A DNA stretch of 64,000 nt from a virus (IMGVR_UViG_3300045988_166882), one strand, 5' to 3'. Shown: positions 22,400 to 63,614, counted from the stretch's first letter. Made by a program: numbers and translations. Notes: generated by a model from the letters alone, not told the origin.

Positions 22400-22714
22400 A
22401 TGGACCGATGGAGATATTTCAAAATAGGTGATATCGTCACCGACCCCGAAGTGTGGGGAAAGACGATGTTCGTAATACGCACGCTGCACGGTAACGACTA
22501 CTGCCCGCTGATCAGTGGCGAGTCCCTAAAACCGATCCGCGGTCGCCGTATAAGGGTAAACCTCGGCGTGGGGGAGACGCGTCTTGTAAACGCTCCTAAA
22601 CGTCCGTTGATGAAGATTCCCGACGGTACGTTGGTGCGGTTAGCTGGAAAGAGCGTTGAAGCGCGGCGCGAATTGTTAATTAGAAGCTATCGTAAACAAT
22701 ATGGCAACGTTTGA
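22400..22714 (+). CDS. hypothetical protein
   Basis: 104-aa ORF. Confidence 0.6.
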   Translation: MDRWRYFKIGDIVTDPEVWGKTMFVIRTLHGNDYCPLISGESLKPIRGRRIRVNLGVGETRLVNAPKRPLMKIPDGTLVRLAGKSVEARRELLIRSYRKQYGNV

Positions 22715-23711
22715 CCATTATGCTTGGGCTGATAAACTACCCGACGCGTCGCTCGACGTGAGCGCAGAACACCACACGGAGTTCTTCCGGACGATGTTCG
22801 AGCGTCAGATGATATGGAAACGGCGGTTCTTAGATCAGGCTCCGCGCCCGTGGACTGAAGACCCCATACTACGCGACTACAAGTTTACCAACGTCTACCG
22901 CGAACTGGACCGAAACTCCCAGTGGCAAATACGTAATATCCTACTCGATGACGGGTTGACGCTGGCGAATCTGGTGTGGAAGATGATGGTGTTCCGCTAT
23001 TTCAACAATCCCGCCACGTTCGAATACGCTCGCGAAAAGTACGGTTGGGGAGCCGGCATCCCGGATCACGACCAATACGACGAAGACCTCTTTGCCGAGA
23101 TGATAACGTCGTACCGCGCTACGGGTAACAATCCCTATACTACGGCGTATCTGATCAATTCGATGGCCACGCCCGGTAAGCCGCGCGACTACTGCTACAC
23201 GCACTTGGTCGTCCCGACGCTTCACCGTCGGTTAGGCGAACTGATGCGGACGGTGTTGACGGCTGACACTCCGGAGCAGATCATCAAGTTCCTTCAGAGC
23301 CTTCCTTCATCGGCGACGTTTATCGCTCACGAATTCTACCAAGACTTCACCTACATACCGCGTTACACCTATCGCCGTTTTATGCGTTTCACCCAAGACG
23401 ACTACACCAACGTCGGTCCCGGCGCGTCCATAGGGCTGCGGCTGGTGTTTCCGTCGTTGAAGTGCCAAATTGACGGTATCTACCGTTTGCGTGACGAAGC
23501 CCGCGAGGCTCTTCAGCAGTGTGGAGACTTTCCATACCTACATTGGGATCGCGCAGGGCGTTGCTACCGGGTGTCGCGCTGCGGCGACGTGACGCTTCAT
23601 CAAGTTGAGATGTGGCTGTGTGAGTACCAGAAGTACTGGAAGATGAAGATCGGCGAAGGGAAGCAACGCTCAATCTTCGAACCGCGAACTCGTAAAATTG
23701 TAGGCCAATGA
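22701..23711 (+). CDS. alpha-glutamyl/putrescinyl-thymine pyrophosphorylase (aGPT-Pplase)-like protein
   Basis: ERQMIWKRRF..PRPWTEDPILRDYKFTNVYRELDRNSQW matches my recollection of the conserved N-terminal block of this family. Not verified by search. Confidence 0.5.
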   Translation: MATFDHYAWADKLPDASLDVSAEHHTEFFRTMFERQMIWKRRFLDQAPRPWTEDPILRDYKFTNVYRELDRNSQWQIRNILLDDGLTLANLVWKMMVFRYFNNPATFEYAREKYGWGAGIPDHDQYDEDLFAEMITSYRATGNNPYTTAYLINSMATPGKPRDYCYTHLVVPTLHRRLGELMRTVLTADTPEQIIKFLQSLPSSATFIAHEFYQDFTYIPRYTYRRFMRFTQDDYTNVGPGASIGLRLVFPSLKCQIDGIYRLRDEAREALQQCGDFPYLHWDRAGRCYRVSRCGDVTLHQVEMWLCEYQKYWKMKIGEGKQRSIFEPRTRKIVGQ

Positions 23712-24068: not shown

Positions 24069-25829
24069 ATGTCCGGTGTAAAAGAAAGATTGGAATCGGT
24101 AGAACGCGCCATGCAGGCTCTCACGATACGTAAATCGTTGTTGATGGAGCGAGCGTTGCGCAGCGACAACCCGTCCGACATACTCAAAGCCGCTGAGATA
24201 TTCAATCAGCAATCCAAGCCCGCTAACGTTGCTCCGAAGGCGTACCTGATCGACCCTTTGGAGTTCAATTCGTTTTTGGGCTATAAGGATAAGCCGTTTT
24301 CGCTTTCGTACGAAACGCTCCGCCGGATGAGCCGCACCCCCATCATCAACTCAATCCTCAAGACCCGTAAGAACCAGATAGCCGACTTCGCTGAACCGCA
24401 GGCCGACCGCTATTCGACGGGCTTCGTGATTCGCCGTAAGCCCAAGCACGGCCAAGAGCAGAAGATGGATTCACAGGACCGCAAGATCGCGTCTTCCATC
24501 ACCGACTTCATCCTCAACTGCGGCGATACCGCTACGTGGGACGGCGACGAGTTTGATGAGTTTATTCGTAAAATCGTTGACGACTCGTTGACGTTCGACC
24601 AGATGACGTTCGAGTGTATCCGGAACCGCCGCGGCAAACTGGTACGCTTTCAGGCCGTGGACGCCGCTACGTTCCGTCTTGCGGAATCGTACTTCGACGG
24701 CGAGTACAACAACCCGTACTTCGACGGCGCCATGACCGACGATCGCCAAAATTGGGGTCCCAAGGTCGACGGCTATTATCCGGCCTACGTTCAGGTGTAC
24801 CAAACAGCCAAGGTGGCGCAGTTCTATCCGTGGGAGTTGTGCTTCGGTATTCGCAATCCGACCACGTCGATCTACGCCAACGGCTACGGCAACTCAGAGT
24901 TGGAAGAGTTGATCAACGTGGTCACGTCGATGCTTTGGGGTGATGAATACAACCGCCGTTTCTTCTCACAAGGTTCTGCGCCGAAGGGTCTGCTCCGCAT
25001 CAAGGGTAACGTCAACGAGGCGTCACTCCAGCAGTTCAAGCAGCAGTGGCAGGCCATGATATCCGGCGTTATGCAGTCGTGGAAGACGCCCGTCGTTGAG
25101 GGCGATATCGACTGGGTTGACCTCCAGAAGAACAACCGCGACATGGAGTACAACTCTTGGATGGAGTACCTGATCAAGATCGCGTGCGCCGTATTCTGTA
25201 TTGACCCCACGGAAATCGGCTGGGATATTTCACGCTCCAACGGCAGCGGCCTTACCTTCGGCGACGGCCAAAAGCAGCGCATGGAGCAATCGAAAGACAA
25301 GGGTCTCTACCCGATGCTGAAATTCATCCAGCGTAAGATCAACAAATTCATCGTCGAGCAGATCAACCCCGACTTCGAGTTTGTGTTCATGGGCCTCAAC
25401 GGTATGACCATCTCCGAGGAATTGGAGATGGACATCAAACGCCTCCAAGCCTTCCAGACCGTGGACGAGATTCGCGAGAAGTGGGACCTCCCGGCTATCG
25501 GCGAAGAAAAGGGTGGCGATACCATCGAGAACGCCGTCATCCAGCAAGCACTCAGCGCCAAGCAACAGCAGCAACAGGCGATGGGTGGTATGGGCGGCGG
25601 CAACCCGTTCGAAGAGGCTGCGGGTATGGGTATGGAAGTCGCGGGTGGCCCGGCTGATGAACCTGTGGCTGGCGGCGAAGGTGAGGAAGACGATGAAGCG
25701 CAGGCCGGCAACCCGTTCGATCTCTACGCCCAAGGCGACGAAGAAGAAACTATGAAGGCCCGTGAGGCAAATCCGCTCGTGGCCGCATTCGATGAATACT
25801 TACAAAAAGCAATAAACCATGACGAGTAA
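24069..25829 (+). CDS. portal protein
   Basis: 586 aa. NSELEELINV..YNRRFFSQGSAPKGLLRIKG..QQFKQQWQAMISG is portal-like. Acidic Gln/Gly-rich C-terminus. Position downstream of terL fits. Confidence 0.75.
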   Translation: MSGVKERLESVERAMQALTIRKSLLMERALRSDNPSDILKAAEIFNQQSKPANVAPKAYLIDPLEFNSFLGYKDKPFSLSYETLRRMSRTPIINSILKTRKNQIADFAEPQADRYSTGFVIRRKPKHGQEQKMDSQDRKIASSITDFILNCGDTATWDGDEFDEFIRKIVDDSLTFDQMTFECIRNRRGKLVRFQAVDAATFRLAESYFDGEYNNPYFDGAMTDDRQNWGPKVDGYYPAYVQVYQTAKVAQFYPWELCFGIRNPTTSIYANGYGNSELEELINVVTSMLWGDEYNRRFFSQGSAPKGLLRIKGNVNEASLQQFKQQWQAMISGVMQSWKTPVVEGDIDWVDLQKNNRDMEYNSWMEYLIKIACAVFCIDPTEIGWDISRSNGSGLTFGDGQKQRMEQSKDKGLYPMLKFIQRKINKFIVEQINPDFEFVFMGLNGMTISEELEMDIKRLQAFQTVDEIREKWDLPAIGEEKGGDTIENAVIQQALSAKQQQQQAMGGMGGGNPFEEAAGMGMEVAGGPADEPVAGGEGEEDDEAQAGNPFDLYAQGDEEETMKAREANPLVAAFDEYLQKAINHDE

Positions 25830-32726: not shown

Positions 32727-33655
32727 TTTTCAACAATCGCCAAATAGACGACATGGTCGGCATTCTCCGGCGTTGGCAGTACCTGTTTATTGCCAAGCAC
32801 GTCGGATTAGACTTTCTGACCCAGTCGGAGATCGACATCTTGGTGGCGTCAGGGGTCAACGTCGATAAGTACAAGAACACGAAAGGTATCATCGAACACG
32901 CTTTTCTGTTCGGTATCTTGGCTGAGGCACTCGGCGATCAACGCGCCAAGAAGATGAATTACAAGCAGTTTCTCCAGTACCTCAAATCAGGAAACTTCGT
33001 TCCGCTCACCGAGCAGGAGGAGAACGCGCTGAATTATCTCAAGAACCGCGCCTACACCGACATCACGTCGCTCGGAAACCGTATCGTTACCGGTACGCGC
33101 AACGCCATCCTCAAATCTAACTTTCGTCAGCAAGCCGCCATACGCCAGCAGATCAAAGATAAGGCCATGCAAGCCGTCCAACTGCGTAAGGGGGCGCGGT
33201 ATATAGCCAGCGAATTGGGGAACCTTACCCAAGACTGGGGACGCGATTGGCTGCGTATTGCGTACTACCTTCTGCACGAAGCCTACAACGTGGGCCGCTC
33301 GGAAAGTATCTACAAGCAGTATGGCCCCGACGCTATGGTGTATTTCGACGTATACCCCGGCGCGTGTGCCAAATGCCGCGAGTTGTACTTGGAGGACCCC
33401 GAAGACCCTAATTCGAAGCCAAAACTGTTCCGCCTCGGAGACCTTATCGCCAACGGTAACAATATCGGCCGTAAGGTGGCTGAGTGGCTTCCTACGATCG
33501 ACCCGACGCACCCCTACTGCCGCTGTACTATCAACCACGTACCGCCGGGGTACGAGTGGGACCCTGAAACACGCGCTTTCACCAAGCCTGTCAAGCGTCA
33601 GTTCAAGAACCCAAAGTTAAGGAACGTGAAACTCAACATTAAAGTAACAAAATAA
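32723..33655 (+). CDS. MuF-like minor head (head morphogenesis) protein
   Basis: CAKCRELY...IDPTHPYCRCT matches the SPP1 gp7/Mu F signature (HPxCRC). The ATG at 32723 overlaps the upstream stop. Confidence 0.65.
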   Translation: MIFNNRQIDDMVGILRRWQYLFIAKHVGLDFLTQSEIDILVASGVNVDKYKNTKGIIEHAFLFGILAEALGDQRAKKMNYKQFLQYLKSGNFVPLTEQEENALNYLKNRAYTDITSLGNRIVTGTRNAILKSNFRQQAAIRQQIKDKAMQAVQLRKGARYIASELGNLTQDWGRDWLRIAYYLLHEAYNVGRSESIYKQYGPDAMVYFDVYPGACAKCRELYLEDPEDPNSKPKLFRLGDLIANGNNIGRKVAEWLPTIDPTHPYCRCTINHVPPGYEWDPETRAFTKPVKRQFKNPKLRNVKLNIKVTK

Positions 33656-34614
33656 TGAAAAACAAAATCGTACAAGACCCCCCGTTCACCATGCAGATCG
33701 AGCCGACCGAGGGTTGTAACTTGGGGTGTTCGTTCTGCGGCCTTCACGGCATGCGTGAAAAGGGTACCAAACCGTGGAATTTCATGACCGTCGAAACCGC
33801 CGAGCGTATCGCTTCTGAGGTAGCGCGTGTGGGCTGGAATTGCAAGTTCGTGTTCGCTATGCACGGCGAACCCACGCTCAACCCGGCGTTCATCGACATC
33901 GTGGCCACGTTCCGCAAGCACTTGCCGAAGGCCGTGTTCCATATGTACAGCAACGGCTACGCCATGAACCACGCCGACGACACCGAGGCTTACCTCGACC
34001 GCCTGTTCGGCGCTGGCATGAACGACATCTTGGTGGACTGCTACACCGCCAACGGCGACTGGAATTTCGTCGAGAAGATCGATGTCGATAAGTACAACGT
34101 CGTCACGCTGGAACCGGGCGTTCCGTACTACTACCCCAAGCAGGGCCGTCGTATCTGCTTGCTGCCGCCCATCGCCCAGGACGATACCAACAAGATGACG
34201 CGGCGTCTGGCCAACCACTGCGGCGCGGCGTTCCCGCTCGACGATTCGTTCAACAACAAGCGTTGTACTTTCCCGTTCCGGGAACTGGACGTGCGCTGGA
34301 ACGGTCAGGTCTGCTTGTGTTGTGACGACTTCCGCGGTGAGTACCCCATCGCCAACATCCACGACATGCCCATCGAAGACCTTTGGAACCACCCGCGCTT
34401 CCACGCCGCTCGCGTGATGCTGTACAATAACGACCGCCGCTTCCGCCCGTGTCAGGGGTGTACGCACGTCAGCGTTCGCGTTGGCTTCCTGCCTGACAAG
34501 AAGGGTAAGCAGACGCTGCCGGCTATCACGCCCGAAATCCGCCGTATGGCTGAAGAGGTATCGAAGGACGGCCCCTGCGCCGAGAAGATTTACCGACGGC
34601 CATGGGAAAAATAA
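33655..34614 (+). CDS. radical SAM enzyme with SPASM/twitch-like C-terminal Cys cluster
   Basis: CNLGCSFC (CX3CX2C), HGEPTLNP, and C-terminal CTFPF..GQVCLCCDDF..PCQGC. Confidence 0.8.
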   Translation: MKNKIVQDPPFTMQIEPTEGCNLGCSFCGLHGMREKGTKPWNFMTVETAERIASEVARVGWNCKFVFAMHGEPTLNPAFIDIVATFRKHLPKAVFHMYSNGYAMNHADDTEAYLDRLFGAGMNDILVDCYTANGDWNFVEKIDVDKYNVVTLEPGVPYYYPKQGRRICLLPPIAQDDTNKMTRRLANHCGAAFPLDDSFNNKRCTFPFRELDVRWNGQVCLCCDDFRGEYPIANIHDMPIEDLWNHPRFHAARVMLYNNDRRFRPCQGCTHVSVRVGFLPDKKGKQTLPAITPEIRRMAEEVSKDGPCAEKIYRRPWEK

Positions 34615-35285: not shown

Positions 35286-36089
35286 ATGGATTGTCAATTC
35301 TTCGTCGTGTCCAAGAACCGCCCCAAGTGCGTCACGACCAAATTGTTGGAAAAGGGCGGCGTCGACTACCACATCGTGGTCGAAAAGGAAGACGTTGAAA
35401 AGTACGTCGAAGCAGGTCACGACCGTAAGCGGTTGATCGTACTACCAGCGTCGAACCGCGGCTACAGCTACGTGGTCAATTTCTGCAAGAACACCTACCT
35501 CCGCGCCGGGCGGCCTGTGGTGGTGATGGATGACGATATCGCCAACTTCTTCTACTCGATCGACGGCGAAGCCAAATGCGGCCTTTCGCTGAAGACCCCA
35601 GAAGAACTGTCAGAGTTCTTTGAAGAGTTCAACCGCGAAGTCATGGAGACCGACTTCGAGTACGGCACCATGGGCAAGAGCGCCTTCGACTGGAGTTGTA
35701 CCGACGTCAGCCCGCGTTTCAAGTACGGCGGTATCCCTCACCTCATCGTGTTCAAAGGGCTGCGGACGCTGGAGTTGGACTTTGACGAAAAGTTGGAGTT
35801 GAAGTGCGACATCGACTATTCGTTGAAGTGTATGTATCTGGGCATCGTCTACGCACGCTTCGTACGCTTCCTTCTCCAGAGTAAGATGAACAAGGAGGCA
35901 AATCAGGGCGGCGGCCTTCAAGACGTGTACGAGCGTCAGGAACGTGTTCAGCGTGCTCACAACATCATATTGAAGCGGTGGCCGCTGAACGCCCGTGTCG
36001 ATGACAAGAAGAAGCCCATCAACGGCGTACCGGAGTTACGTATTGTGTACAAGAAATTTGATATTGACTTTGATGCGGTGGAGGTGTAG
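35286..36089 (+). CDS. GT-A-fold glycosyltransferase-like protein (paralogue of 17098-17913)
   Basis: FVVSKNRP, NRGYSYVVNF, VVVMDDDIANF (DxD). Confidence 0.55.
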   Translation: MDCQFFVVSKNRPKCVTTKLLEKGGVDYHIVVEKEDVEKYVEAGHDRKRLIVLPASNRGYSYVVNFCKNTYLRAGRPVVVMDDDIANFFYSIDGEAKCGLSLKTPEELSEFFEEFNREVMETDFEYGTMGKSAFDWSCTDVSPRFKYGGIPHLIVFKGLRTLELDFDEKLELKCDIDYSLKCMYLGIVYARFVRFLLQSKMNKEANQGGGLQDVYERQERVQRAHNIILKRWPLNARVDDKKKPINGVPELRIVYKKFDIDFDAVEV

Positions 36090-40262: not shown

Positions 40263-40679
40263 ATGAAAAAGGAACCCCAGTACGGAATAGCGCGCCTGCG
40301 AACGACTTCGGTCGTTGGCGGTATGGCTTCACCGTACATCAATCGTAAACAACCTTCGGCGTTGATCCCCTTCAAGGGTGATCTCCCGATGCTGAACGAC
40401 ATCGACACTCTCACGTTCCGTGAAGCTATCCGTGAGACGCTGTCGCTCGACGAACTTTCGTCAGAGTTTCAGCGTGTAGCCACCGAGGGTTATCGTATTG
40501 CCGTCATGGAAGAAGGATTCACCGCGTATCTTCGCGAGCGAGCCATAACGCCTGACGACTTTGTAAAATTAAGCAATCCCGAGAAATCGGACTATTTGCT
40601 GGATTGGATGAATTTGAACTCATTAGGTTTGGAATCGCTTAAAATCACAATCCGCAATGGCAAAAATTACGTACAATAA
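40263..40679 (+). CDS. hypothetical protein
   Basis: 138-aa ORF. Confidence 0.6.
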   Translation: MKKEPQYGIARLRTTSVVGGMASPYINRKQPSALIPFKGDLPMLNDIDTLTFREAIRETLSLDELSSEFQRVATEGYRIAVMEEGFTAYLRERAITPDDFVKLSNPEKSDYLLDWMNLNSLGLESLKITIRNGKNYVQ

Positions 40680-41181
40680 TCCCGCGGCGTTCGCTATCAA
40701 CGACACCGTGCGCGACCTCATCAGTAAGGTGGCCGATGATACCGCCAACCCCGAAATCGTCATCACCTCGACGCTCCGTACCCCTGAAGCGCAGGCCAAG
40801 GCTATGGCCGACAACCTGTATGCCGGTAAACGTATCCGCTACCGTGCGCCGGGTGCAGCCGTTACCAAGGTCTTTGACGACAACTGCAAAAAGCAGGCCC
40901 GCTCCGAGGTCGAGAAACTGATGGTGGCTGAAATCGAACGCCAAGCCGCCATGGGGCAGCGTGTATCGCTTCACTGTACGACGGAGGCGTTGTACCGCCA
41001 GTGTAACATCATCGACCTTTCGATCTCGCAGATGAAGAACCCGCGTGACTTCACCAACGCTTTGGCTAAAGAGGAGAAGTGCCGTAAGATCATCACGCCG
41101 CTTGGCGACGTTAAGTATGAAAGCCCCAAGGTGTCTATCGACGGCAATGAAGCCGCGCTCCACGTCGAGATTTTGGCGTAA
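40657..41181 (+). CDS. hypothetical protein, possibly M15-type (DD/LD-peptidase fold) cell-wall hydrolase
   Basis: ITSTLRTPEAQ, SLHC...IIDLS and AALHVEI loosely match the SxHxxGxAxD/H pattern. Weak call. Confidence 0.55.
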   Translation: MAKITYNNPAAFAINDTVRDLISKVADDTANPEIVITSTLRTPEAQAKAMADNLYAGKRIRYRAPGAAVTKVFDDNCKKQARSEVEKLMVAEIERQAAMGQRVSLHCTTEALYRQCNIIDLSISQMKNPRDFTNALAKEEKCRKIITPLGDVKYESPKVSIDGNEAALHVEILA

Positions 41182-41215
41182 CAAGTATAATGTTAGAAAC
41201 TTATAAAATTTAAGA
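41178..41215 (+). promoter_or_regulatory. conserved gene-junction element (candidate late promoter)
   Basis: GTAACAAGTATAAT..AAATTTAAGA-N2-ATG, almost identical to 60531-60560. The ACAAGTATAA core also occurs at 44250. Confidence 0.35.
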
Positions 41216-41217
41216 AT

Positions 41218-42963
41218 ATGCCGAGTTTTGTAAATATGGCGTCGCTTACCAAGTTGACGTCGATTACGGGAAACGAAGAGTTTCAAGTCTCAGCTACCAA
41301 CAAGATTAGTTCAAGAGACATAGCTTCATTGGCGCTTACACAGCAATTACATGGTTTATCGGAGGTCACTATTGGATCACCAAAAATATCAAGTACCTCG
41401 TTGTTGCTGTCTGCCATAGCAGCACTTTACAGGCTTAGTAGCGACAATGGTAAAATACTTCCAATTTCCAACGGTATTGATAAGTTCGGAAATGTCGTTT
41501 TTTCCGGTACTAATGCAGTCGGGATATTATTCGATGTGAAGGCATCCAAATACTTTACCCGATCAGGAGTGACTGCCACTGCAATCTTCAACAGCGCGCA
41601 ATGGATTTCTTGGTTGCAAGACGGAGAGGCTCATGAGATGGACGGTGGTTCCGGTGTTGCCGATCCGATTCAGATTCACGACTTCGCCGAGGTCAGTGCT
41701 ATCGACAACTGGCCGACGCCTAAAGACGGTCTGATTATTCCGTTTGTTACGGATTCAGGCGTTCTGAATAAACCGGGGAACGAATCCGAGTACGTGGGCA
41801 TCATCATCTGCGAAGTAGATACCCAAAATACGGGCCGCGCCGAAGTAATTGCTTACGGATGTGGAACTGGTGCGTGCTATGTAGGATTACTGGATTATGC
41901 TTCGGTCAGTATCGAATGGATGGTAAACAAAATGTCGGTCGCTGGCAAAAAACTTAGCGCGTTTACCGGTACTGCAATCGGAAACTATATTCAGAGCATG
42001 GGAAATGCTGGTGACTTATTTCCGTTCGTCACTGTAAACGCCAACAAGACTACCGCTAACCAGTTTCCGGCCAACGGTGCATGGAGTGGATTCGTCACCA
42101 TTGGTGACGGGGGTGGTGTAAACATTATTGCTTTCAAAAGCACCACTGATCCGAATGCCGAGGTTTATGTCGGTCGTTGTAGTGGCGGCACTACCCAATG
42201 GACCCTCGTCGGTGGTGGTAGTGGTGGTGGTGGTGGACTGGACGTGATTAATGTTCCTATGGGCGGTGATATAGGCTCCATCATTGCTGGTGCAAACTGG
42301 AAACAAACGGGAATGGAGGGAGAGATGAAAGCCGTTTTTGTCTTGGACCCTGCAAGTGTTGTTGGAGACTATTTTCCGAATCTTAAAAACGCTCAGACAC
42401 TCGCAGGATTTGCTCAATGTGTCTATGACGGTTCAGACTATCAGTATTTCATAACCACCCTATTCCCGTATACAGACACATTACGCAATCTCTCAAAAGA
42501 GTATGGGCGAATTCTTTCAGAAACTAACGGGGATGTTATCGACTATGAAGAATATCCGTATTGTGGAGAGGCCCCTATTCCCGGTTATTCTACTTTAGTG
42601 AACGTATGGCGTGGTCCTTTAGTGACAGATAGTACCGGGGTTATAAATTTTAACGCTGAGATACCTACATCTTCAAAGATATTGGTTGTCGCAAAACTGC
42701 GTAGCTCAACTGCTACAACAGCCAATGTCGTAGCGAATATCCCTATAACTTTTGTTGATGTAAATTCGACAGGCCAAGGAATTATACTCGACTACACAAA
42801 CCTACTCATAGGTAAAAACGGTGTTCCCGGTTCCATAAGGCTCATTTGTTCGTCTGTTATTACTGGAGCTACGGGTGTACAAGGTATGAATTTCGTGTTA
42901 CAAGTGAGCAACGTATCAGATGTGTCTAATATTCTCGAAATAGCGATGTATAGCAATAGATAG
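41218..42963 (+). CDS. tail fibre / receptor-binding protein (581 aa)
   Basis: Low-GC ORF, Gly-run hinge (GGGSGGGGG), Ser/Thr/Gly/Asn/Val-rich (beta-type composition). The C-terminal third is homologous to the inverted ORF at 43448-44230. Confidence 0.65.
   Translation: MPSFVNMASLTKLTSITGNEEFQVSATNKISSRDIASLALTQQLHGLSEVTIGSPKISSTSLLLSAIAALYRLSSDNGKILPISNGIDKFGNVVFSGTNAVGILFDVKASKYFTRSGVTATAIFNSAQWISWLQDGEAHEMDGGSGVADPIQIHDFAEVSAIDNWPTPKDGLIIPFVTDSGVLNKPGNESEYVGIIICEVDTQNTGRAEVIAYGCGTGACYVGLLDYASVSIEWMVNKMSVAGKKLSAFTGTAIGNYIQSMGNAGDLFPFVTVNANKTTANQFPANGAWSGFVTIGDGGGVNIIAFKSTTDPNAEVYVGRCSGGTTQWTLVGGGSGGGGGLDVINVPMGGDIGSIIAGANWKQTGMEGEMKAVFVLDPASVVGDYFPNLKNAQTLAGFAQCVYDGSDYQYFITTLFPYTDTLRNLSKEYGRILSETNGDVIDYEEYPYCGEAPIPGYSTLVNVWRGPLVTDSTGVINFNAEIPTSSKILVVAKLRSSTATTANVVANIPITFVDVNSTGQGIILDYTNLLIGKNGVPGSIRLICSSVITGATGVQGMNFVLQVSNVSDVSNILEIAMYSNR
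42193..42204 (+). repeat. left copy of the inverted 12-mer at the fibre constant/variable junction
   Basis: ACCCAATGGACC, read as ACC CAA TGG ACC (TQWT). Confidence 0.5.
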
Positions 42964-43005
42964 ATTAACAGTGGTGCATCTTCGGGTGGAATAGCTCCCG
43001 GTACA

Positions 43006-43413
43006 GTGATATTCAACGACGAATTTTCGTTTGATGGCTACACCAGCGCAAATCCCGGTCAGTTGTCTCTCTTACAACCTATTCCGTTAGGGTCCATAGT
43101 GACTTTCATAGGATCGTATTATTTTGGACTTCCCGCCGAAGAAATTTTACTTTCACCCGAAAGCCATACATGGTCATTTACAGTAGCTTTACCCACTGGA
43201 GCTTCCAGTGTCGCACACTATCTGAAAGACATGTTAGTCGTGCAAAATCCCGATACAAATTTGGTAGTAGACAGACAATCCGCGATGTACAAAATAGATG
43301 CCAAAAATCTCGTTAATGGCAAAATCAGTACAATAGATATGTACGCTACTGGAGTTCTGTTGTCTGATATGTATTTAACGATTGAGCAAATTATCTATGT
43401 TGCGCAGGTATAG
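43006..43413 (+). CDS. hypothetical protein in frame with the fibre gene across a single TAG
   Basis: Only a GTG start is available. Same frame as 41218-42963 and open continuously from the fibre TAG at 42961-42963. Confidence 0.5.
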   Translation: MIFNDEFSFDGYTSANPGQLSLLQPIPLGSIVTFIGSYYFGLPAEEILLSPESHTWSFTVALPTGASSVAHYLKDMLVVQNPDTNLVVDRQSAMYKIDAKNLVNGKISTIDMYATGVLLSDMYLTIEQIIYVAQV

Positions 43414-43418
43414 AATAA

Positions 43419-43443
43419 ATCCCCCTCCTATTAAGAGGGGGAT
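43419..43443. terminator. bidirectional rho-independent terminator
   Basis: ATCCCCCTC/GAGGGGGAT 9-bp stem flanked by AATAAA and TTTTCTT. Lies between convergent ORFs. Confidence 0.7.
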
Positions 43444-43447
43444 TTTC

Positions 43448-44137
43448 TTAGATATTGGCATACACACCTTTAATCCGCAAAATATCAGATGGATTACCTA
43501 AATTGTTTGATGTTACAACTACTTGTAATCCCTGAATCCCTTTCGCTCCTGTCACAACAGAAGCAACATTCAAACGGATTTGCCCGATATTAGTTCCGGA
43601 CGCAATACTTCGGGTGTTCAAATCCATAAGTGTTGCTGCTTGTACGGGATTAAAGAACGTTACAGGAATAGCCACTGATCGAATGTCAGCATTGGGACCA
43701 GCCGATGATCTGAGTTCGGCGTCAATGAACATTGCCGTACTGTTGATGACCTCATAGTTAAAATTCACAATCATCAAACTCCCTGCTGATAATGCCAAGT
43801 CATATTGATTGGCTATTTTGGTAAATCCGGGGATAGGGGATGCAAAGGTACCAATGGGGGTCAACATGGTCTCCATTACGTCACCGCTATTGTTCATCAG
43901 CACTTCTCCCCGGTAAGCGATCCGGCCTGATGTTTCCCATATTGTGAAGGTTAGTCCAATGTGTTGATAATCTCCGCCATCATACACACGCTGGGCATAT
44001 CCAACAATAGTAGATTCAGCCTGCGGAAAAGAAGCGTTTTTGATCTGAGGTAATTGATCGTATATATCGGATGACGGCTCTATGAATACAGGCACTATTT
44101 CGCCATCCTTATCCCACGAGTGATTTTCAACAATCAT
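43448..44137 (-). CDS. alternative tail-fibre C-terminal cassette (frame open to 44230 without a start codon)
   Basis: The only convincing minus-strand ORF in the window. Collinear with residues ~326-581 of the + strand fibre. The homology continues 31 codons upstream of its first ATG. Confidence 0.6.
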   Translation of the reverse strand: MIVENHSWDKDGEIVPVFIEPSSDIYDQLPQIKNASFPQAESTIVGYAQRVYDGGDYQHIGLTFTIWETSGRIAYRGEVLMNNSGDVMETMLTPIGTFASPIPGFTKIANQYDLALSAGSLMIVNFNYEVINSTAMFIDAELRSSAGPNADIRSVAIPVTFFNPVQAATLMDLNTRSIASGTNIGQIRLNVASVVTGAKGIQGLQVVVTSNNLGNPSDILRIKGVYANI

Positions 44138-44197
44138 CGTGATGGATTCATCCGACCCGATGTATATAGGGTCAACTGCCCCACCTCCGCCAACAGC

Positions 44198-44209
44198 GGT
44201 CCACTGGGT
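44198..44209 (-). repeat. right copy of the inverted 12-mer
   Basis: The + strand reads GGTCCACTGGGT, so the minus strand reads ACCCAGTGGACC, in the same codon phase (TQWT). Confidence 0.5.
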
Positions 44210-44286
44210 GGGGACGTGTTTTGCCCCACGTCAACACGATTCGCCATTACAAGTATAACGCTGATAACAGTACACTATCGTAAAAC

Positions 44287-45831
44287 ATGTTTAAGGACGA
44301 TAAATTCAATTTCTGGTGCCCTATCGGGCGCATCGAGAAGGCCACCGACGAAGCGGGTGAACCCGTTATGCGTATCGGCGGTATTGCCTCTACCATGGAT
44401 AAGGACGCCGATGGCGAATACCTCGATCCCACGGGGTTTGACATCGAGCCGCTGAAGAACTCCGGAATGGTTAACTGGCACCACCAAGCCAAGAACTCCC
44501 CAGCCGCTATTATCGGTGAGCCGTCGAAGGTCGAGTTGCGTCCTGAAGGTCTTTGGATCGAGAGCGACCTGTACGCTTCGTCGCCTATGGCTAATGAGGT
44601 CTACGAACTGGCCAAAACTCTCGAAGAAGACAGCAAGACGCGCCGCTTGGGGTATTCCATCGAAGGAAAGGTTGTAAAGCGTGCTTCTAACGACAAGAAG
44701 TCGCCCCTCTACAACAAGATCGTTAAGGCCGTTATCACTGGCGTGGCCGTAACCCACATGCCCAAGAATCCTCATACGTTCGTCAACATCATAAAAGGCC
44801 AAATCGACGCCGACGGCATTGAGGTCGATTTGGAGGAAGAGGACGACAACGCCGAACAGCGCGGTGGTGATACCGAGAAGAAGGCTCTTACTACGTCCAG
44901 TGGCGCAGCGTTGATGCCTGAGTCGGTCGACGGCCAACCGAAGAAAACGTTCTCGAAATCTTCCGTCATGGAATGTATCTTCCGCGACATTCCAAATATT
45001 ACAATACCGAACGCCCAAGAAGTGTACACTTTAATCAAAAACATATCGGTTATGAACAAACGCAAATCCATCACTTCCGAGGACATCGAGAAGGCATACG
45101 ACGCTCTGGGGCTGAATCCCGAGGGTAAGGTTGCCGCCGATGCCGAAGACGTGCAAAAGGGTGACGACGCCGACGGCCAGATGGGTAAGGAAGACGAAAC
45201 CCACGACGACGAGCCGCGTCATAACGCCGCCAACATGAAAAATGCTAAGGCCGGCAAGAAGGAGGAATCCGAAGAGGAGACCGAAGACGACGACGAGGGC
45301 TTCGAGCAGTGCGACAAGAACGGAGCCAAGATGAAGAAGGCCGCCGACAACGACCTCATGAAGGCTATTCAGGGCATTGGTAACGACTTCAAGTCGTACA
45401 TCAAAGCTACTGCCGTACTGGTGAACGATCTCCGTCAGAAACGCGCTGAGGACGCTAAACGTATCGCCGAACTCGAAGACGTCATCAAAGGCCAGACCGA
45501 GGTCATCGAAGGCTTCTCTACCAAACTGGAACGCTACGGCAGCGAGGTTCCGCGCCCCAAGTCGCTGCGTTCGGCTACGGTGGTTGACCGCGCTTTCGCC
45601 AAGGGTGACACCAAAGGCGACATCGAGAAGGCCGACGGCATTACCCGTATCTCCATGACGGAGCATCCCAAGGCCGTTGCTTCGCTGCTCGATCAGGCGT
45701 CGTTCGCCAAGGGCTACGACAAGGAGTACGGTGACGCGCTTTTGGCGTTTGAGGCCAGGCCGGAAGACGGCGTTCCTTCGAACATCATCGCTCGTCTGAA
45801 GGCGGAAACCGGATACGAGATCGTGAAGTAG
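44287..45831 (+). CDS. prohead serine protease fused to an acidic/coiled-coil scaffold-like C-terminus
   Basis: IGGIASTMDKDADGEYLDP, VNWHHQ, RRLGYSIEGKV and ITGVAVTHMPKNPHT match the HK97-type prohead protease pattern. The C-terminal half is Asp/Glu/Lys-rich. Confidence 0.75.
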   Translation: MFKDDKFNFWCPIGRIEKATDEAGEPVMRIGGIASTMDKDADGEYLDPTGFDIEPLKNSGMVNWHHQAKNSPAAIIGEPSKVELRPEGLWIESDLYASSPMANEVYELAKTLEEDSKTRRLGYSIEGKVVKRASNDKKSPLYNKIVKAVITGVAVTHMPKNPHTFVNIIKGQIDADGIEVDLEEEDDNAEQRGGDTEKKALTTSSGAALMPESVDGQPKKTFSKSSVMECIFRDIPNITIPNAQEVYTLIKNISVMNKRKSITSEDIEKAYDALGLNPEGKVAADAEDVQKGDDADGQMGKEDETHDDEPRHNAANMKNAKAGKKEESEEETEDDDEGFEQCDKNGAKMKKAADNDLMKAIQGIGNDFKSYIKATAVLVNDLRQKRAEDAKRIAELEDVIKGQTEVIEGFSTKLERYGSEVPRPKSLRSATVVDRAFAKGDTKGDIEKADGITRISMTEHPKAVASLLDQASFAKGYDKEYGDALLAFEARPEDGVPSNIIARLKAETGYEIVK

Positions 45832-45871: not shown

Positions 45872-47359
45872 ATGGACAGACTTTCTATCAATCTCGCCGA
45901 CTATGGCATCCAAGCGCGTGGTGCCCAGTACGGCTCGTCCAGTCAGGAAGAGGTCGCTGCGCTGAACAAAGCCCTCGAAGCCACCGACATCACGGGTCGT
46001 CAGACGACGAACCTTACCGATGCCTCCGGTGCGCCGCTGAAGGTGGAGTCGCTGGAGCGTACTCTGAAGCACCTGACGTTCCGTGAGAGCGACATCGTTC
46101 TCTGGAAGAACCTGCCGAAAAAGGCCGCCTACAACACCGTTGAGGAGTACAACCAGTTGGCATCGTACGGTGCTGACCGCGGTGGCTTCACCAACGAAGG
46201 CGAACTCCCCGACGAGGAAGACTCGATCTACATCCGTCGGGCTCAGCTGGTGAAATACCTCGGCGTCACCAAGTCGGTTACGCACCAGATGACCCTCGTC
46301 AACACGATGGTGGGCAACATCATGGAGCGCACCATCAAAGACGGTACGCTGTGGATTCTCCGCAAGCTGAACAAGTCGCTGTACTACGGCAACTCGGACA
46401 TCATCCCGCAGGAGTTCAACGGTCTGCTGGCTCAGCAGCTGCAGTCGGACGCATGGAGCGGTCTGGACGCTTACCTCAACTCTGAGAACGTGATCGACCT
46501 TCGCGGTCGTGGCCTGACCGAGGACCCCATCGAGACGGCTGCCAACTCGATCGTCGAGAACTACGGCCTCGGAACCGAGCTGTATGCTCCCCCCGCCGTT
46601 CTTTCGGACTTCGTCAAGACGTTCTACGGCAACAAGTTCATCCAGCCCAACACCGCCCAGACCAGCGCCGGTATCATGGGTCAGCGCGTTCAGGCGTTCG
46701 ACTCGCAGTTCGGCCGCATCGGCCTCAACTACGACGTCTTCTTCAAGAAGGCTCCGTTCAAGGTTGCTGGTGCTCAGTCGACGCATCCCAAGTCGCCCGC
46801 CGCTCCCGTATGGGACACCGCCGCTCCGGCTACGGTTGTTGCTGACGTGACGACCTCGAAGTTCAACTCGGAGGACGCTGGCAACTACATCTACGCTATC
46901 GCAGCCATCAACCGCCACGGCGAGTCGTCGCTGGTGGTGAACGAGACTCCGGTGGCCGTGACTGCGGGGTCGGTCGTTGACCTCAAGTTCTCGATCGTGG
47001 ACAACGCTCACCCGGCTACGGGTTATCGCGTGTACCGTTCGAAGAAGGGTGGCGACAAGAACAGCAAACTGTACCCGATCTTCGACATCTCGGTGGCTCA
47101 GCTGAAACTGGGTTACGCAGGGGCTGCCGGCGATCTGTGCCGCGATAACAACTACTTCCTGCCCGACTGCGATCAGGCCTTCCTGGTTCAGTTCGACAAC
47201 GAAGTGATCGAGTTCGCTCAGCTGGCTCCGCTGATGAAGATGGACCTCGCGATTCTGTCGCCTGCGTACCGCTTCATGGTGCTGCTGTACGGTACGCCGT
47301 TCCTGTACGCGCCGAAGAAGTTGGTCCGCCTGATCAACATCGGACGCGCCTCCAACTAA
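45872..47359 (+). CDS. major capsid protein (HK97-fold by position)
   Basis: 495-aa ORF directly after the protease/scaffold gene, followed by a strong hairpin. Confidence 0.7.
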   Translation: MDRLSINLADYGIQARGAQYGSSSQEEVAALNKALEATDITGRQTTNLTDASGAPLKVESLERTLKHLTFRESDIVLWKNLPKKAAYNTVEEYNQLASYGADRGGFTNEGELPDEEDSIYIRRAQLVKYLGVTKSVTHQMTLVNTMVGNIMERTIKDGTLWILRKLNKSLYYGNSDIIPQEFNGLLAQQLQSDAWSGLDAYLNSENVIDLRGRGLTEDPIETAANSIVENYGLGTELYAPPAVLSDFVKTFYGNKFIQPNTAQTSAGIMGQRVQAFDSQFGRIGLNYDVFFKKAPFKVAGAQSTHPKSPAAPVWDTAAPATVVADVTTSKFNSEDAGNYIYAIAAINRHGESSLVVNETPVAVTAGSVVDLKFSIVDNAHPATGYRVYRSKKGGDKNSKLYPIFDISVAQLKLGYAGAAGDLCRDNNYFLPDCDQAFLVQFDNEVIEFAQLAPLMKMDLAILSPAYRFMVLLYGTPFLYAPKKLVRLINIGRASN

Positions 47360-60087: not shown

Positions 60088-60534
60088 ATGGGAAAGTTAG
60101 GAATAGACCCCAAAATGGTTATCCGCGCTACGTGCAAGGACTACCTCGCCACGCTGCCTGAAGAAGAGGCTAACAGCTACGTTGACGACATGGAGCAGTC
60201 GGTTGGTGATTCTATCCAGCAAAAGATCGATGAAGCCGAAACGTGGCTCGAAGCCGCTGAAACATCAGGCACCAACGCCATCGAGGCGTCCACTTCGTTA
60301 GGCGTTCAGGCCGTATGCGCTGACCCTATGGCAGGTGTAGCGTCCACAGGCGTCATAGCGTCAGCCAAGTCCGGCGCAGCTACCGCCAAAGCGCAGGTGG
60401 CTACCGGTAATGCCGCCATCCAGCAGGTTATACGTATCGTTGGTGGTTTCATGCTACCGCTTCCGGCCCCTGTAACCGCCGCGGCTCAAACTCTGGCGGC
60501 AGCCGACGCTGCGTTGTCGGCCATACCCGTGTAA
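60088..60534 (+). CDS. hypothetical baseplate-module protein
   Basis: 148-aa Ala-rich ORF. Confidence 0.6.
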   Translation: MGKLGIDPKMVIRATCKDYLATLPEEEANSYVDDMEQSVGDSIQQKIDEAETWLEAAETSGTNAIEASTSLGVQAVCADPMAGVASTGVIASAKSGAATAKAQVATGNAAIQQVIRIVGGFMLPLPAPVTAAAQTLAAADAALSAIPV

Positions 60535-60560
60535 CAAGTATAATTGATGTAAATTTAAGA
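60531..60560 (+). promoter_or_regulatory. conserved gene-junction element (second copy)
   Basis: GTAACAAGTATAATTGATGTAAATTTAAGA-CG-ATG; compare 41178-41215. Confidence 0.35.
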
Positions 60561-61353: not shown

Positions 61354-62355
61354 ATGCTGATTCCTGAATACATAATCCGATTTTCCAACGTGACGAAATA
61401 TCGTTTGACGGACTTCTTGGAGCGATACCAAGACTTCTTCGACAACGATTACACGTCCATCGACCAGTATTTTTCGGGCCTCAGTGAAAGCGTCGATCAT
61501 GACCGCCTGCGTCGTCTCCAGAAATTGCTCGCCGACTGCCGTGAGTTACAAGCCCAGTTCAAGAACTACGACAACCGCTTTGATAACTGCGGCTATTGGC
61601 TGCTGATGGAGTGGATCGACAACCTCGTTATGCAGGTCGAAAAGGTTACGAAGCTACCCAAGTTCCGGCGCACCACGCTGACGGCCCGAAACTACAAGCC
61701 CGTTATTCAGGTCGAGTCGTCGATTGGCGCTCAGCGTACCATGGAGGACCTGTCCATAGCCATCCAATCGAACGGCATGGACCGCGTTTCGTGGGAGCAA
61801 CTCATGCTGGACAACGACCTCGAAGAAGACCAGTGGGAAATCGACGAGTTGAAGCCTGTAACGGCTATGGTGAATAACATCACGCCCGCCGCCGTGACTA
61901 CTATCTTGGAACCGCCTATCGGTGAACAGGTCTATGGCAAGGACATCGCCCGTAAGATCACCATCGAGGTTGAAGAGGAAGTGGCAACAAAGGCCGTTTT
62001 TCGGCGATCTGGCGACTCAACGACCGTCACCTCGGCCCGGCGTATAGGCGACCTTAAAATCGTTAAATACAAGGACAACATCGACCAAAAGGTGATGATC
62101 CTCATGGGACTCAACCGCGGGACCGTACCCGACAACCCGTTGCTGGGTGTCGATCCTAACCTCACGGCCGGAGTCACCGCCGCTCAGTTGTCGCTACCTA
62201 CGGTTCGCCGCCAGATGGTAGACACGTTCCTCCAGGACGATTTATTCGAGGCTGTTGATATGGTTTCCATCGAACAGAATCAGGACTCGCTGGTTTGTAC
62301 GCTGGAGATTAAGACCAAGTACAATGACAAAGTGACCAAAAAAGTGAAGCTATGA
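61354..62355 (+). CDS. putative baseplate protein
   Basis: ORF 61327-62355; the ATG at 61354 lies just after the upstream stop. Confidence 0.6.
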   Translation: MLIPEYIIRFSNVTKYRLTDFLERYQDFFDNDYTSIDQYFSGLSESVDHDRLRRLQKLLADCRELQAQFKNYDNRFDNCGYWLLMEWIDNLVMQVEKVTKLPKFRRTTLTARNYKPVIQVESSIGAQRTMEDLSIAIQSNGMDRVSWEQLMLDNDLEEDQWEIDELKPVTAMVNNITPAAVTTILEPPIGEQVYGKDIARKITIEVEEEVATKAVFRRSGDSTTVTSARRIGDLKIVKYKDNIDQKVMILMGLNRGTVPDNPLLGVDPNLTAGVTAAQLSLPTVRRQMVDTFLQDDLFEAVDMVSIEQNQDSLVCTLEIKTKYNDKVTKKVKL

Positions 62356-63614
62356 TAACGCAGATAACGCCAATCGAGGAACTCAAGCAGATGTGGCTCG
62401 AAATATTTCTGAACAAGACCGACAAGGTTTCCGACGTGTCAGCCGAGTCGGTTTTGAACGCCATGGCCTACGCCGATTCCAAGATCGGCCAGAAGATCAT
62501 GGTCAATCAGGCGGTGATCGAAGGTCACATATTCCCCGATACGGCAGCGGGCGAATACCTCGACGCCTTGGCTGCGCTACGTGGCGTGGCACCGCGCTTC
62601 GGAGCCGCTCCGGCAACGACCTACGTCCGTGTTATAGGCGACCCTGGTACGTTCTATCAGGCTGGTACGATGTTCACCTCAACGACCGGGTTGACGTTCG
62701 TTTCTACGGAAGACGTTACGATCGGTGGCGTCGATGAAAACACAGGCCGCGTGGTTGTAAACTCCCGGCTGGCGTATATCCCCGTTCGGTGTACGAAATC
62801 GGGTGCTGTTACCAACATCCCGCCGCTGTCGCTGAACCGCGTGAACCCTACGCCTCCCGGACACCAGAGTTGCACCAACGAGTACCAAGCCACCGGGGGT
62901 CGCGATCAGGAAGACGACGAAACGTTCCGCATCCGCATCAAGGAAAGCGTGAACCAGTTGGCGATGAATACGCTGGCGCAGTTGGAGCAGGTACTGATGA
63001 AGATCAACCCGCGTGTTCTGCGAGTACTCAAAGGCGGATACGGTGAATCGCAAACTACGGGTTCAGCCGCTGAAAGCCGCATCAACCTGACGGTGGTATC
63101 AGTTAACGGTCAAGACTTCACGCAAGAGGAATTTGATGAGATGTATTCACGCGCCGAGGAGTATTTGTGCCTCACCGACCTGTTGCGCGTTTCTATCGCC
63201 GGAGCGCGTTACCCCGCCATCAATCTGCGTAACGTCAACTGGCTGTTCGTTAACGTGGACTTCCGCGTTGATATCGACCCGGCGTACAATACCGACGACG
63301 TCCGCACCCAGATTCAACTCCAGATGAACAAACTGTTCGACTACCGTTTCTGGGAACCGGGCGACAAGGTAGAGTGGGAAGACATGCTGTACGTCGTCAA
63401 GAACGTCGAAGGCGTGCGATACGTCCCCGATACGCACTTCAACCCCGGCTATGACATCAACGTCCCCGAATATACGCTGCCGCGGGTACGCAGTTTCGTG
63501 ATGCGTGACTTGGACGGCAACGTGATACTCGACAACGGCGGAGTACTTTCCGAAGTGTTCTACCCGAACGTCGAAGACGCAAACTACCAAGCAACCGTGT
63601 TAATGTCTATCTGA
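62352..63614 (+). CDS. baseplate J-like protein
   Basis: 420 aa. YLDALAALRGVAPRFGAAPATTYVRVIGDPGTFYQAGTMFTS..GLTFVSTEDVTI resembles the Baseplate_J core. Confidence 0.65.
   Translation: MITQITPIEELKQMWLEIFLNKTDKVSDVSAESVLNAMAYADSKIGQKIMVNQAVIEGHIFPDTAAGEYLDALAALRGVAPRFGAAPATTYVRVIGDPGTFYQAGTMFTSTTGLTFVSTEDVTIGGVDENTGRVVVNSRLAYIPVRCTKSGAVTNIPPLSLNRVNPTPPGHQSCTNEYQATGGRDQEDDETFRIRIKESVNQLAMNTLAQLEQVLMKINPRVLRVLKGGYGESQTTGSAAESRINLTVVSVNGQDFTQEEFDEMYSRAEEYLCLTDLLRVSIAGARYPAINLRNVNWLFVNVDFRVDIDPAYNTDDVRTQIQLQMNKLFDYRFWEPGDKVEWEDMLYVVKNVEGVRYVPDTHFNPGYDINVPEYTLPRVRSFVMRDLDGNVILDNGGVLSEVFYPNVEDANYQATVLMSI

Follow-up and report, generated by a model that had tools for sequence, protein, structure and literature searches.

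Invertible fibre tips are a textbook feature of temperate coliphages that carry an invertase of their own. In the Mu G segment (Gin), the P1/P7 C segment (Cin) and the e14 P segment (Pin) a constant 5' part of the fibre gene lies outside the invertible segment, and alternative 3' parts lie in inverted orientation within it. The present work concerns a locus of the same design in a 64,000-nucleotide stretch of viral DNA (IMGVR_UViG_3300045988_166882; "the window" denotes this whole stretch), in which a fibre gene on the + strand (41218-42963) is followed in inverted orientation by a silent alternative version of its own 3' end, tip B (- strand, 43448-44197). As in Mu G and P1 C, the coding junction contains the inverted repeats, neither a promoter nor a start codon precedes the silent copy, and a change of receptor specificity would be expected upon inversion. 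A sequence-only reading of the window had proposed this logic (constant N-terminal part, promoter-less alternative C-terminal tips, inversion at a repeat in the coding junction), and it is borne out in related genomes. The locus is very probably an invertible tip-cassette locus; the fuller statement, that receptor-binding tips are switched here by inversion through an invertase-free mechanism based on homology or microhomology, is held with a confidence slightly better than even.

As in the Gin, Cin, Hin and Pin switches, joining is in frame: the repeat copies share a codon phase, and fusions are seen in two related proteins (P0001, P0135). In other respects the locus departs from Mu G and P1 C. 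No serine invertase was found beside the segment or elsewhere in the genome, and there are no paired U/U'-type chaperone genes; the arms (the inverted repeats that bound the segment) vary by lineage in sequence, length and position and evolve in concert; a palindromic terminator is shared between the tips; and the phage looks virulent. Unlike Gin and Cin, with their gix/cix consensus, there is no one conserved 26-bp site, the mapped exchange cores being TGGACC and GGTGGGGC. The presence of more than two C-terminal cassettes per constant N-terminal part, some direct and some inverted, and the formation of mosaic products through several sites (here the junction and a mid-tip repeat) recall the Min system of p15B and the R64 shufflon (Rci, pilV). 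However, neither a Min or Rci recombinase nor repeated mix- or sfx-type sites were found here, the direct cassette is activated by deletion and not by successive inversions, and, unlike in the R64 shufflon, the boundary between the expressed tip (tip A) and the direct cassette (tip C) is a remnant domain junction that carries no repeated site.

Herpesvirus and plastid inverted repeats exemplify genome isomerisation by general recombination. In Anabaena cyanophages a region of ~30 kb is invertible, and recombination linked to replication was put forward as the cause (bioRxiv 10.64898/2026.02.14.705889). The present locus resembles the cyanophage case in its inverted-repeat flanks, in the occurrence of both orientations in close relatives and in the fact that no recombinase has been identified; in the cyanophage, herpesvirus and plastid cases, however, arms of 400-700 bp enclose a segment tens of kb long and reading frames are left as they were, whereas here arms of 6-104 bp lie inside coding sequence and a flip would splice on a new protein end. 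Recombination at conserved motifs ('His boxes') in T-even adhesin genes was reportedly described by Tetart et al. in 1998, and in both systems short conserved coding motifs between adhesin modules recombine to give mosaic tips; the T-even exchanges, unlike those here, are between genomes; they draw on no silent inverted cassette within the genome, and nothing is flipped reversibly. Diversity-generating retroelements (BPP-1 Mtd) likewise diversify a receptor-binding fibre end from a nearby silent template, but here whole domains are swapped instead of adenine-directed point changes, and there is no template repeat. Such an element was rejected because no reverse transcriptase domain was found in the 83 open reading frames (ORFs) of the window or in 46 ORFs of relatives, and because the copies are 34% identical domains, not near-identical repeats. 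Tail-fibre inversions in prophages have been reported (Milman et al., 2023; PMC9881135); full-text literature searches found no published description of the present system.

The fibre gene and its inverted cassette

The fibre ORF (581 aa) lies 28 nt downstream of a promoter-like motif on the same strand, AACAAGTATAA (41180-41190). Its N-terminal anchor (residues 1-143, 41218-41646) is constant, ends in a first Gly linker, EMDGGSGV, and is conserved in all related loci (designated L below); in L006, L040 and L004 a tip is joined straight after ..EMDGGAV. The shaft (domain 1, residues 144-325, 41647-42192) is 89-99% identical in L002, L045, L046 and L077 and absent in L006, L040 and L004; a second BLASTP high-scoring segment pair relates its opening, GGSGVADPIQIH, to that of tip B, GGGGAVDPIYIG. 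There follow the left arm ACCCAATGGACC (42193-42204), which encodes T326-Q-W-T329, and the linker LVGGGSGGGGG with the expressed tip A (residues 330-581 and the TAG stop, 42205-42963). Straight past the stop the fibre frame continues as tip C (42964-43413, + strand; own first start a GTG at 43006). Between the convergent frames stands a palindromic hairpin terminator (43417-43445; 14-nt arms, 93% complementary), and beyond it, read on the - strand, are tip B (AVGGGGAVDPIYIG.. to its stop), the right arm ACCCAGTGGACC (complement of 44198-44209) and a start-less leader, RGAKHVP, with an upstream stop at 44231-44233 (44210-44233 in all). A second promoter-like motif, TACAAGTATAA (44248-44258, + strand), belongs to the protease/capsid operon (protease ATG 44287) and marks the right edge of the variable locus. 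The module at ~41200-44200 has a G+C content of 40-48%, and its flanks 52-60%; 43413-44287, the sole large stretch with no + strand ORF, is filled by the inverted cassette.

That the cassette is collinear with the fibre tip, as had been read from the sequence, is upheld by BLASTP, which aligns fibre residues 326-580 with cassette residues 8-259 (34% identity, 53% positives, E 8e-36). In both sequences TQWT opens the alignment, placing the onset of similarity at the inverted 12-mer ACCCARTGGACC as claimed, and the DNA upstream of each 12-mer is indeed unrelated. The minus-strand frame is open for 260 codons (44230-43451, stop 43448-43450), and the first ATG, GTG or TTG in it is the ATG at 44137; its start-less stretch, already noted to align with the fibre, is translated within a fibre fusion in L117 (P0135). 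The shared codon phase of the two 12-mer copies is confirmed by their positions (42193 = 41218+3x325; 44209 = 44230-3x7). As a 12-nt inverted repeat alone it is not statistically remarkable, there being 73 inverted pairs in 3.7 kb; the window arms match at 11/12 positions, and blastn-short returns no significant inverted repeat. The 12-mer carries weight because of its codon phase, its site at the onset of similarity and its use as a crossover in relatives. A further inverted repeat, at the conserved PIPG motif in mid-tip (42572-42584, partner 43827-43839; 12/13 complementary), also has both copies in the same codon phase. The parental junctions of the window read GGCGGCACTACCCAATGGACC followed by CTCGTCGGTGGTGG and ACGTCCCCACCCAGTGGACC followed by GCTGTTGGCGGAGG; after inversion they are predicted to read GGCGGCACTACCCAATGGACC followed by GCTGTTGGCGGAGGTGGGGCAGTTGACCC and ACGTCCCCACCCAGTGGACC followed by CTCGTCGGTGGTGGTAGTGG. 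The predicted flipped junctions are also represented by the sequences GGCGGCACTACCCAATGGACCGCTGTTGGCGG and CCCCACCCAGTGGACCCTCGTCGGTGG. The genotype of the window is carried in SRR35114164, ERR13898744, ERR13982474, SRR22388816, SRR22877498, ERR9295330 and ERZ13448263, and in GCA_900527225.1.

The hairpin at 43417-43445 scores as terminator-like on both strands, in agreement with the bidirectional terminator first proposed for the convergent frames, and both of its orientations occur in relatives. The motif WACAARTATAA, probably a phage promoter or regulatory element, has 3 matches in 64 kb against 0.09 expected; each belongs to the + strand and precedes an ATG by 20-29 nt (41218, 44287 and 60563, the third copy lying at 60533-60543). 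No copy occurs on the minus strand of the window, and the inverted cassette is therefore promoter-less with respect to that element; a sigma-70-type promoter scan gave background level only. In some relatives the ATG with which the silent frame opens comes from the reverse complement of WACAARTATAA. Immediately beyond the right arm lies another hairpin (44208-44232; GTGGGG..CCCCAC or GACGTG..CACGTC), which is kept in L003 (GTGGGGACATGTTTGTCCCCAC), L002 and L014 with different loop and stem sequences and persists also where the inverted cassette is lost.

Both orientations and the points of exchange among relatives

Relatives were obtained from IMG/VR, ENA, Logan and NCBI; 64 related loci were fetched via the conserved upstream gene (40657-41181), and the DNA up to the protease gene was compared. 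An inverted cassette of 100 codons or more is present in 27 of the 49 unique complete loci; the tips form 23 clusters, and four tip pairs are found in both arrangements. At least 23 tip types are shuffled among genomes. Reciprocal pairs, in which the flanks are in direct orientation and the segment is inverted, are L017/L026 (885 bp inverted, 98.2% identity), L013/L059 (1264 bp, 94.5%), L065/L076 (641 bp, 98.3%), L052 against each of L023, L018, L028 and L070 (992 bp, 87-89%), L006/L040 (1219 bp, 97.5%) and L117/L002 (1271 bp, 92.2%). L064 (ORRW01003285) and L065 (ULRL01010213), from different assemblies, show 100% identity along both 1435 nt of the fibre and 625 nt of the segment, yet the segment is turned round, the expressed junction running from ..GGGGDG into IFPGWKR.. 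in one and into VEQLFSG.. in the other. Contigs end at or inside an arm in L060, L062, L067 and L069 (99-100 kb), and also in L064 and L077; this suggests that assemblers were unable to resolve segment orientation, although an unresolved repeat would look alike. The same architecture is present in independent IMG/VR, ENA, Logan and NCBI assemblies, and an assembly artefact was rejected on that ground.

Tip B is expressed as a fusion in L006 (P0001) and L117 (P0135), and a tip 58% identical to tip A occupies the silent slot of L003. The exact 229-aa tip B product occurs in 82 blocks of the collection, and at 10/10 places listed it is convergent with the fibre gene, in the silent slot. A window-type shaft-tip B protein was not among 84 candidates, in a search that missed known fusions and carries no weight, and the exact flipped-junction pattern was not found in IMG/VR. 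Small contigs with P0013 and P0004 were considered as arm-bounded segments and rejected as ordinary fragments. In P0012 (269 aa, from a 69-kb Logan contig) the 5' part of tip B is joined to the antisense of the fibre 3' end by a deletion of tip C, the terminator and the last part of tip B.

Several comparisons place the exchange at the 12-mer itself. P0135, a fibre of 582 aa that contains ..GSTTQWTAVGGGGAVDPIYIGPSESITMIVENHSW.., emerged when 1.84 billion representatives were scanned with tip B without a profile; in its locus, L117, tip B stands in frame after ..TTQWTAVGGGGAVDPIYIG.. and the silent slot holds tip C behind HVPTQWT and LVGGSSGGASSGG, an arrangement of which L002 and L077 are the reciprocal. 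The left arm of L117 is actaCCCAATGGAC continuing into cgctgttggcgg (cgctgttgg..), and its right arm is ccccaCCCAGTGGAC continuing into cctcgtaggtgg (cctcgtagg..). Between L117 and L002 an A/G difference stays with the flank and the linker travels with the tip; the exchange therefore took place within TGGACC. The flipped junction predicted from the window is represented in L123 (Logan SRR33116945_295), whose silent cassette holds ggcggcactaCCCAATGGACcgctgttggcggaggtggggcagttgaccc, a window-type shaft end joined via the 12-mer to tip B. The silent prefix there, PTQWTLVG-RCSGGTTQWT-AVGGGGAVDP.., has the shaft-end piece between two arm copies, which marks L123 as a relic of inversions that followed one another at two distinct microhomologies, GTCGGT and the 12-mer. 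The window and L045 cease to be homologous at the last base of the 12-mer, where the L045 arm is 31 bp, and the L006/L040 exchange, between first linker and right arm, lies inside GGTGGGGC. The right arm is constant in every locus of the window's lineage, whichever tip follows.

The stretch 43006-43413, which the sequence-only reading had described as a small accessory ORF, is not an accessory gene; it is part of the third tip cassette, tip C, which continues the fibre frame. Directly past the TAG and in frame stands INSGASSGGIAPGTVIFNDEF.. (42964-43413), and INSGASSGGIAPG.. (junction INSGASSGG) is the exact domain-E/tip-C junction of P0043, found also in P0077; tip A with its stop has therefore replaced domain E, stranding tip C. 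Tip C is the expressed tip in L002, L040, L120, L122 and P0041 and the silent inverted tip in L006 and L117. In L120 and L122 the silent-cassette DNA is 100% identical to that of the window, tip A is lost and tip C is fused, at Gly-linker microhomologies that differ between the two (TLVGDSGASSGG and TLVGGGSGGGGIAPG); because of this identity the two deletions are considered very recent. Three further fusion junctions are found in L002, P0041 and P0031, and tip C has been joined to the shaft by at least five distinct microhomology deletions in Gly-rich linkers. Tip C is thus an archive copy that is switched on by deletion. Read-through or recoding of the TAG, joining tip A to tip C, was rejected on the grounds that the junction is a domain-E/tip-C remnant (P0043), that relatives use tip C via deletions, and that the ORF map of the window is continuous under the standard code.

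Arms, selection and the mechanism of switching

The arms fall into four classes, unrelated in sequence and located at two positions in the gene: 52-66 bp, encoding TFSGSTNGTTAQWTELGGGG; 31-33 bp, encoding T[QK]WTAVGGGG; 28-30 bp, encoding TTQWTALGGG; and 96-104 bp (type IV), in mid-tip at ..YEYPSVILSPIPGYKELV.., with one 38-bp case in L055. Perfect arms of 96-104 bp at the PIPG site flank inverted half-tips in L011, L018, L023, L028, L052 and L070. Arm lengths overall extend from 6-12 up to 104 bp; with regard to homologous recombination, the arms of relatives are 28-104 bp and mostly perfect, and those of the window's lineage (the window, L002, L006, L040 and L117) are 12 nt. Type I arms show 0 mismatches within 7/8 genomes against a mean of 3.2 between genomes, type IV arms 0 within 5/5 genomes against 19.9, and arms differ between genomes at several synonymous sites, a pattern that indicates concerted evolution; natural arm polymorphism is seen in L021 (3 mismatches). 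The outer halves of the arms cannot be made alike by conservative exchange at a fixed core, and their identity within genomes therefore argues for gene conversion. Taken jointly, arm homogenisation and the numerous deletions at microhomologies in these linkers point to general recombination acting on repeats in coding sequence.

The caution with which the mechanism had been treated on first reading was justified, as neither the window nor the remainder of the genome tiled from relatives yielded an invertase. Pfam scans of the 83 window ORFs and of 46 ORFs spanning the remaining ~36 kb of relatives gave no match to PF00239, PF07508 or PF00589 at E<=1e-3 and no serine or tyrosine recombinase domain. 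Machinery for general recombination does appear to be present: the ~36-kb sector of relatives encodes a RecA-like protein (3e-11), an SbcC/Rad50-like AAA_23 ATPase with a Metallophos nuclease, and UvrD, and also DnaB and Pol III alpha, and the window encodes a 5'-3' exonuclease (20442-21434).

Selection distinguishes the silent from the expressed copies. Silent copies of tip B have ratios of nonsynonymous to synonymous substitution (dN/dS) of 0.11-0.29, and none of the 7 unique copies contains a stop codon. Expressed copies compared with the nearest silent tip B show 13 nonsynonymous and 0 synonymous changes in one case (window against L006) and 5 and 0 in the other (L043 against L117), a total of 18:0 that contrasts with 20 nonsynonymous and 51 synonymous changes in silent-silent pairs (Fisher p = 1.1e-8) and therefore argues for selection for change on the copy joined to the shaft. 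The changes in the expressed copies cluster at residues 9-10, 132, 164-165 and 223-231 (window 43451-44179 compared with L006 and L117). The contrast between expressed and silent copies provides an unusually clean natural record of selection on the active copy only.

In the mechanism proposed, the constant anchor and shaft (41218-42192) would be joined at the TQWT-Gly-linker to whichever tip is adjacent, and the spare tips would wait downstream with no promoter or start codon, tip B inverted and tip C in direct orientation behind the stop, with the palindromic terminator between them serving either orientation. Recombination of the junction with the inverted copy that precedes the silent tip would flip ~42205-44197, splicing the silent tip in frame onto the shaft and silencing the old one. 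The engine would be general recombination dependent on homology or microhomology during replication, for which the RecA-like, SbcCD-like, UvrD and 5'-3' exonuclease functions of relatives would serve; a dedicated invertase would be less likely. Flipping is probably frequent in lineages whose perfect arms are long (30-104 bp), and the window, because of its 12-nt arm (11/12) and 13-nt mid-tip arm, probably flips rarely, its switch being likely slow or nearly locked. Deletion between Gly-linker repeats would offer a second, irreversible route, to the activation of tip C.

Several considerations weigh against this mechanism. Exchanges in the window's lineage map to 6 bp (TGGACC; L117/L002) and 8 bp (GGTGGGGC; L006/L040), which is far below the usual need of RecA-type recombination, and they are conservative and in frame, like site-specific recombination. 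The RecA-like and SbcCD-like genes are those seen in relatives' DNA outside the window, and a host invertase, or an unrecognised recombinase among the unannotated phage proteins, may be at work. For both orientations in one population the arm-ended contigs and the L064/L065 pair are suggestive hints. Finally, purifying selection on tip B in short-arm genomes, and the occurrence of the same product beside many fibres, are hard to reconcile with very rare flipping, a tension that may be eased if cassettes move between phages or are expressed independently.

A trans-acting enzyme is kept as the main rival because the exchanges of the window's lineage are conservative and only 6-8 bp. According to this explanation, which is unlikely but the strongest of the alternatives, the same switch would be catalysed at a short core (TGGACC, a G-run) by an invertase of the host, probably a member of the Bacteroidota, or by an unrecognised phage protein. 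Reciprocal in-frame exchange inside such cores would be expected of it, the 12-mer is the breakpoint in at least three comparisons (window/L045, L117/L002 and L123), and the purifying selection on silent cassettes in short-arm genomes also fits. Most phage proteins have no match in Pfam or PHROG, and the phage encodes an HU-like DNA-binding protein (Bac_DNA_binding, 10103-10396); HU assists the Hin and Gin invertasomes, but SPO1-like phages commonly encode it as well. Across ~100 kb, however, no resolvase, invertase or integrase domain was found, and the mapped cores, TGGACC and GGTGGGGC, are not alike; the type IV arms occupy another place in the gene and have no core in common with the others, and whole arms of 30-104 bp are homogenised, which is impossible for fixed-core exchange. 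Selection for in-frame products would, moreover, make rare illegitimate events look conservative.

Somewhat less probable still is that the locus is an archive and not a working switch, reshuffled on an evolutionary scale by rare illegitimate recombination and by exchange during co-infection, followed by selection, so that tip B of the window never flips within a population. The 12-nt, 11/12 arms of the window and the blastn-short result are consistent with this, as are the position of the exact silent product in the silent slot at all 10 listed places of the 82 blocks and the failure of (incomplete) searches to find a window-type shaft-tip B protein; the locus is also highly mosaic, with flanks often more diverged than segments, which points to exchange between genomes. 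However, L117 and L123 show recombination at exactly these arms, L064 and L065 are identical yet opposite, the perfect identity of arms within a genome implies that they often recombine with each other, in long-arm lineages at any rate, and the silent copies are not decaying, as their dN/dS and intact frames attest.

That the minus-strand ORF is, solely or in addition, an independently expressed gene for a free tip protein (229 aa from the ATG at 44137, or longer in relatives) is very improbable: in types I, III and IV and in L006 the frame is open to an ATG antisense to the CATTACAAGTATAA motif, in L003 a separate ATG stands four codons ahead of TQWT, and the 229-aa product is strongly conserved across many contexts and under purifying selection when silent, but the upstream ATG (44247-44245 in the window) is out of frame in the window, L002, L004, L043 and L045, the minus strand has no phage promoter motif, the 14 codons from the arm to the 44137 ATG are in frame in all copies and form part of the P0001 and P0135 fusions, type IV cassettes are merely half-tips, and the same tips are demonstrably used as fusions.

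Inversion by general recombination can be extended to a broader picture, which as a whole is tentative and falls somewhat short of an even chance. The locus would then be a recombinase-free, self-maintaining shufflon of a virulent gut myovirus, which flips, deletes and exchanges receptor-binding domains by general recombination at the TQWT-Gly-linker junction, the mid-tip PIPG motif and the palindromic terminator; the switch rate of each lineage would be tuned by gene conversion that makes the arms longer or shorter; and the whole would represent a distinct class of programmed host-range variation and not a degenerate Gin-type system.

The phage and the meaning of tip switching

The tail-fibre label first given to the gene is tentative. 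A model of the tip by AlphaFold2 (predicted local distance difference test score, pLDDT, 77; predicted template modelling score 0.75) was searched with Foldseek, and for tip A the sole strong match in the PDB is 5m9f_C, the two C-terminal domains of staphylococcal phage K gp144 (E 3e-5, probability 1.00, template modelling (TM) score only 0.27/0.32); gp144 is a receptor-binding protein. BFVD matches of the tip are uncharacterised phage proteins, some from crAss-like phages. The full-length fibre model is poor (pLDDT 56) and its Foldseek matches have TM <= 0.13, and the fibre sequence has no Pfam, PHROG or PDB match. The label is weakened by the position of the gene among head genes: it has DNA-modification/head genes on one side and protease/capsid genes on the other, and the baseplate genes are far away.

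All plausible genes of the window other than the cassette are read from the + strand. Pfam and PHROGs identify a portal (24069-25829), the head maturation protease (44287-45831), an SU10/SPO1-type major capsid protein (45872-47359) and Baseplate_J (62352-63614), and also a 5-hydroxymethyldeoxyuridine DNA kinase (22701-23711), TET-associated glycosyltransferases and a radical-SAM/SPASM enzyme. The capsid protein is nearest (49%) to those of the Bacteroides thetaiotaomicron myoviruses DAC16-23 and SJC03, then to Herelleviridae; the nearest isolates have Bacteroides hosts, and INPHARED contains no near-identical phage. Fibre residues 4-329 match a hypothetical protein of the crAss-like phage cr108_1 (29% identity); membership of Crassvirales, which this match might indicate, was rejected in view of the SU10/SPO1-like capsid nearest DAC16-23 and the Baseplate_J gene. 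Related contigs are ~97-102 kb and come from human-gut metagenomes, and the genome closes as a ~100-kb circle when the window is combined with ~36 kb tiled from relatives L032, L079, L107 and L036. The baseplate protein alone occurs in 544 blocks of the public collection, and the phage is common in the human gut. It is apparently virulent, having genes on one strand, its own replication and recombination genes, and no integrase found.

Other features of the genome lie apart from the fibre locus. A hypermodification module, made up of the DNA kinase, the radical-SAM/SPASM enzyme and the TET-associated glycosyltransferases (22701-23711, 33655-34614 and 35286-36089, with a thymidylate-synthase-like gene in L079/L107), suggests glycosylated or otherwise hypermodified thymidine in the phage DNA. 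A 905-aa ORF (14361-17078) has a Hint domain and a LAGLIDADG homing endonuclease and is therefore taken as an intein-containing gene; a separate NUMOD3 protein is encoded near 11558-12436. IMGVR_UViG_3300029572_000001 (199 kb; source of L004/L007, L023, L079, L088, L105 and L107) contains two distinct related genomes head-to-tail, with two different fibre types at ~88-100 kb and 189-199 kb, and is probably a chimeric or concatenated assembly.

The logic familiar from temperate coliphages is thus met in a prevalent, apparently virulent ~100-kb phage of the human gut in which no invertase was found. If the mechanism proposed here is true, general recombination and repeats in coding sequence suffice for programmed variation, and searches for invertons that are anchored on a recombinase miss such loci. 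Inversion would let the phage change what it binds, which, if true, would help to explain the persistence of such phages against the phase-variable surfaces of Bacteroidota.

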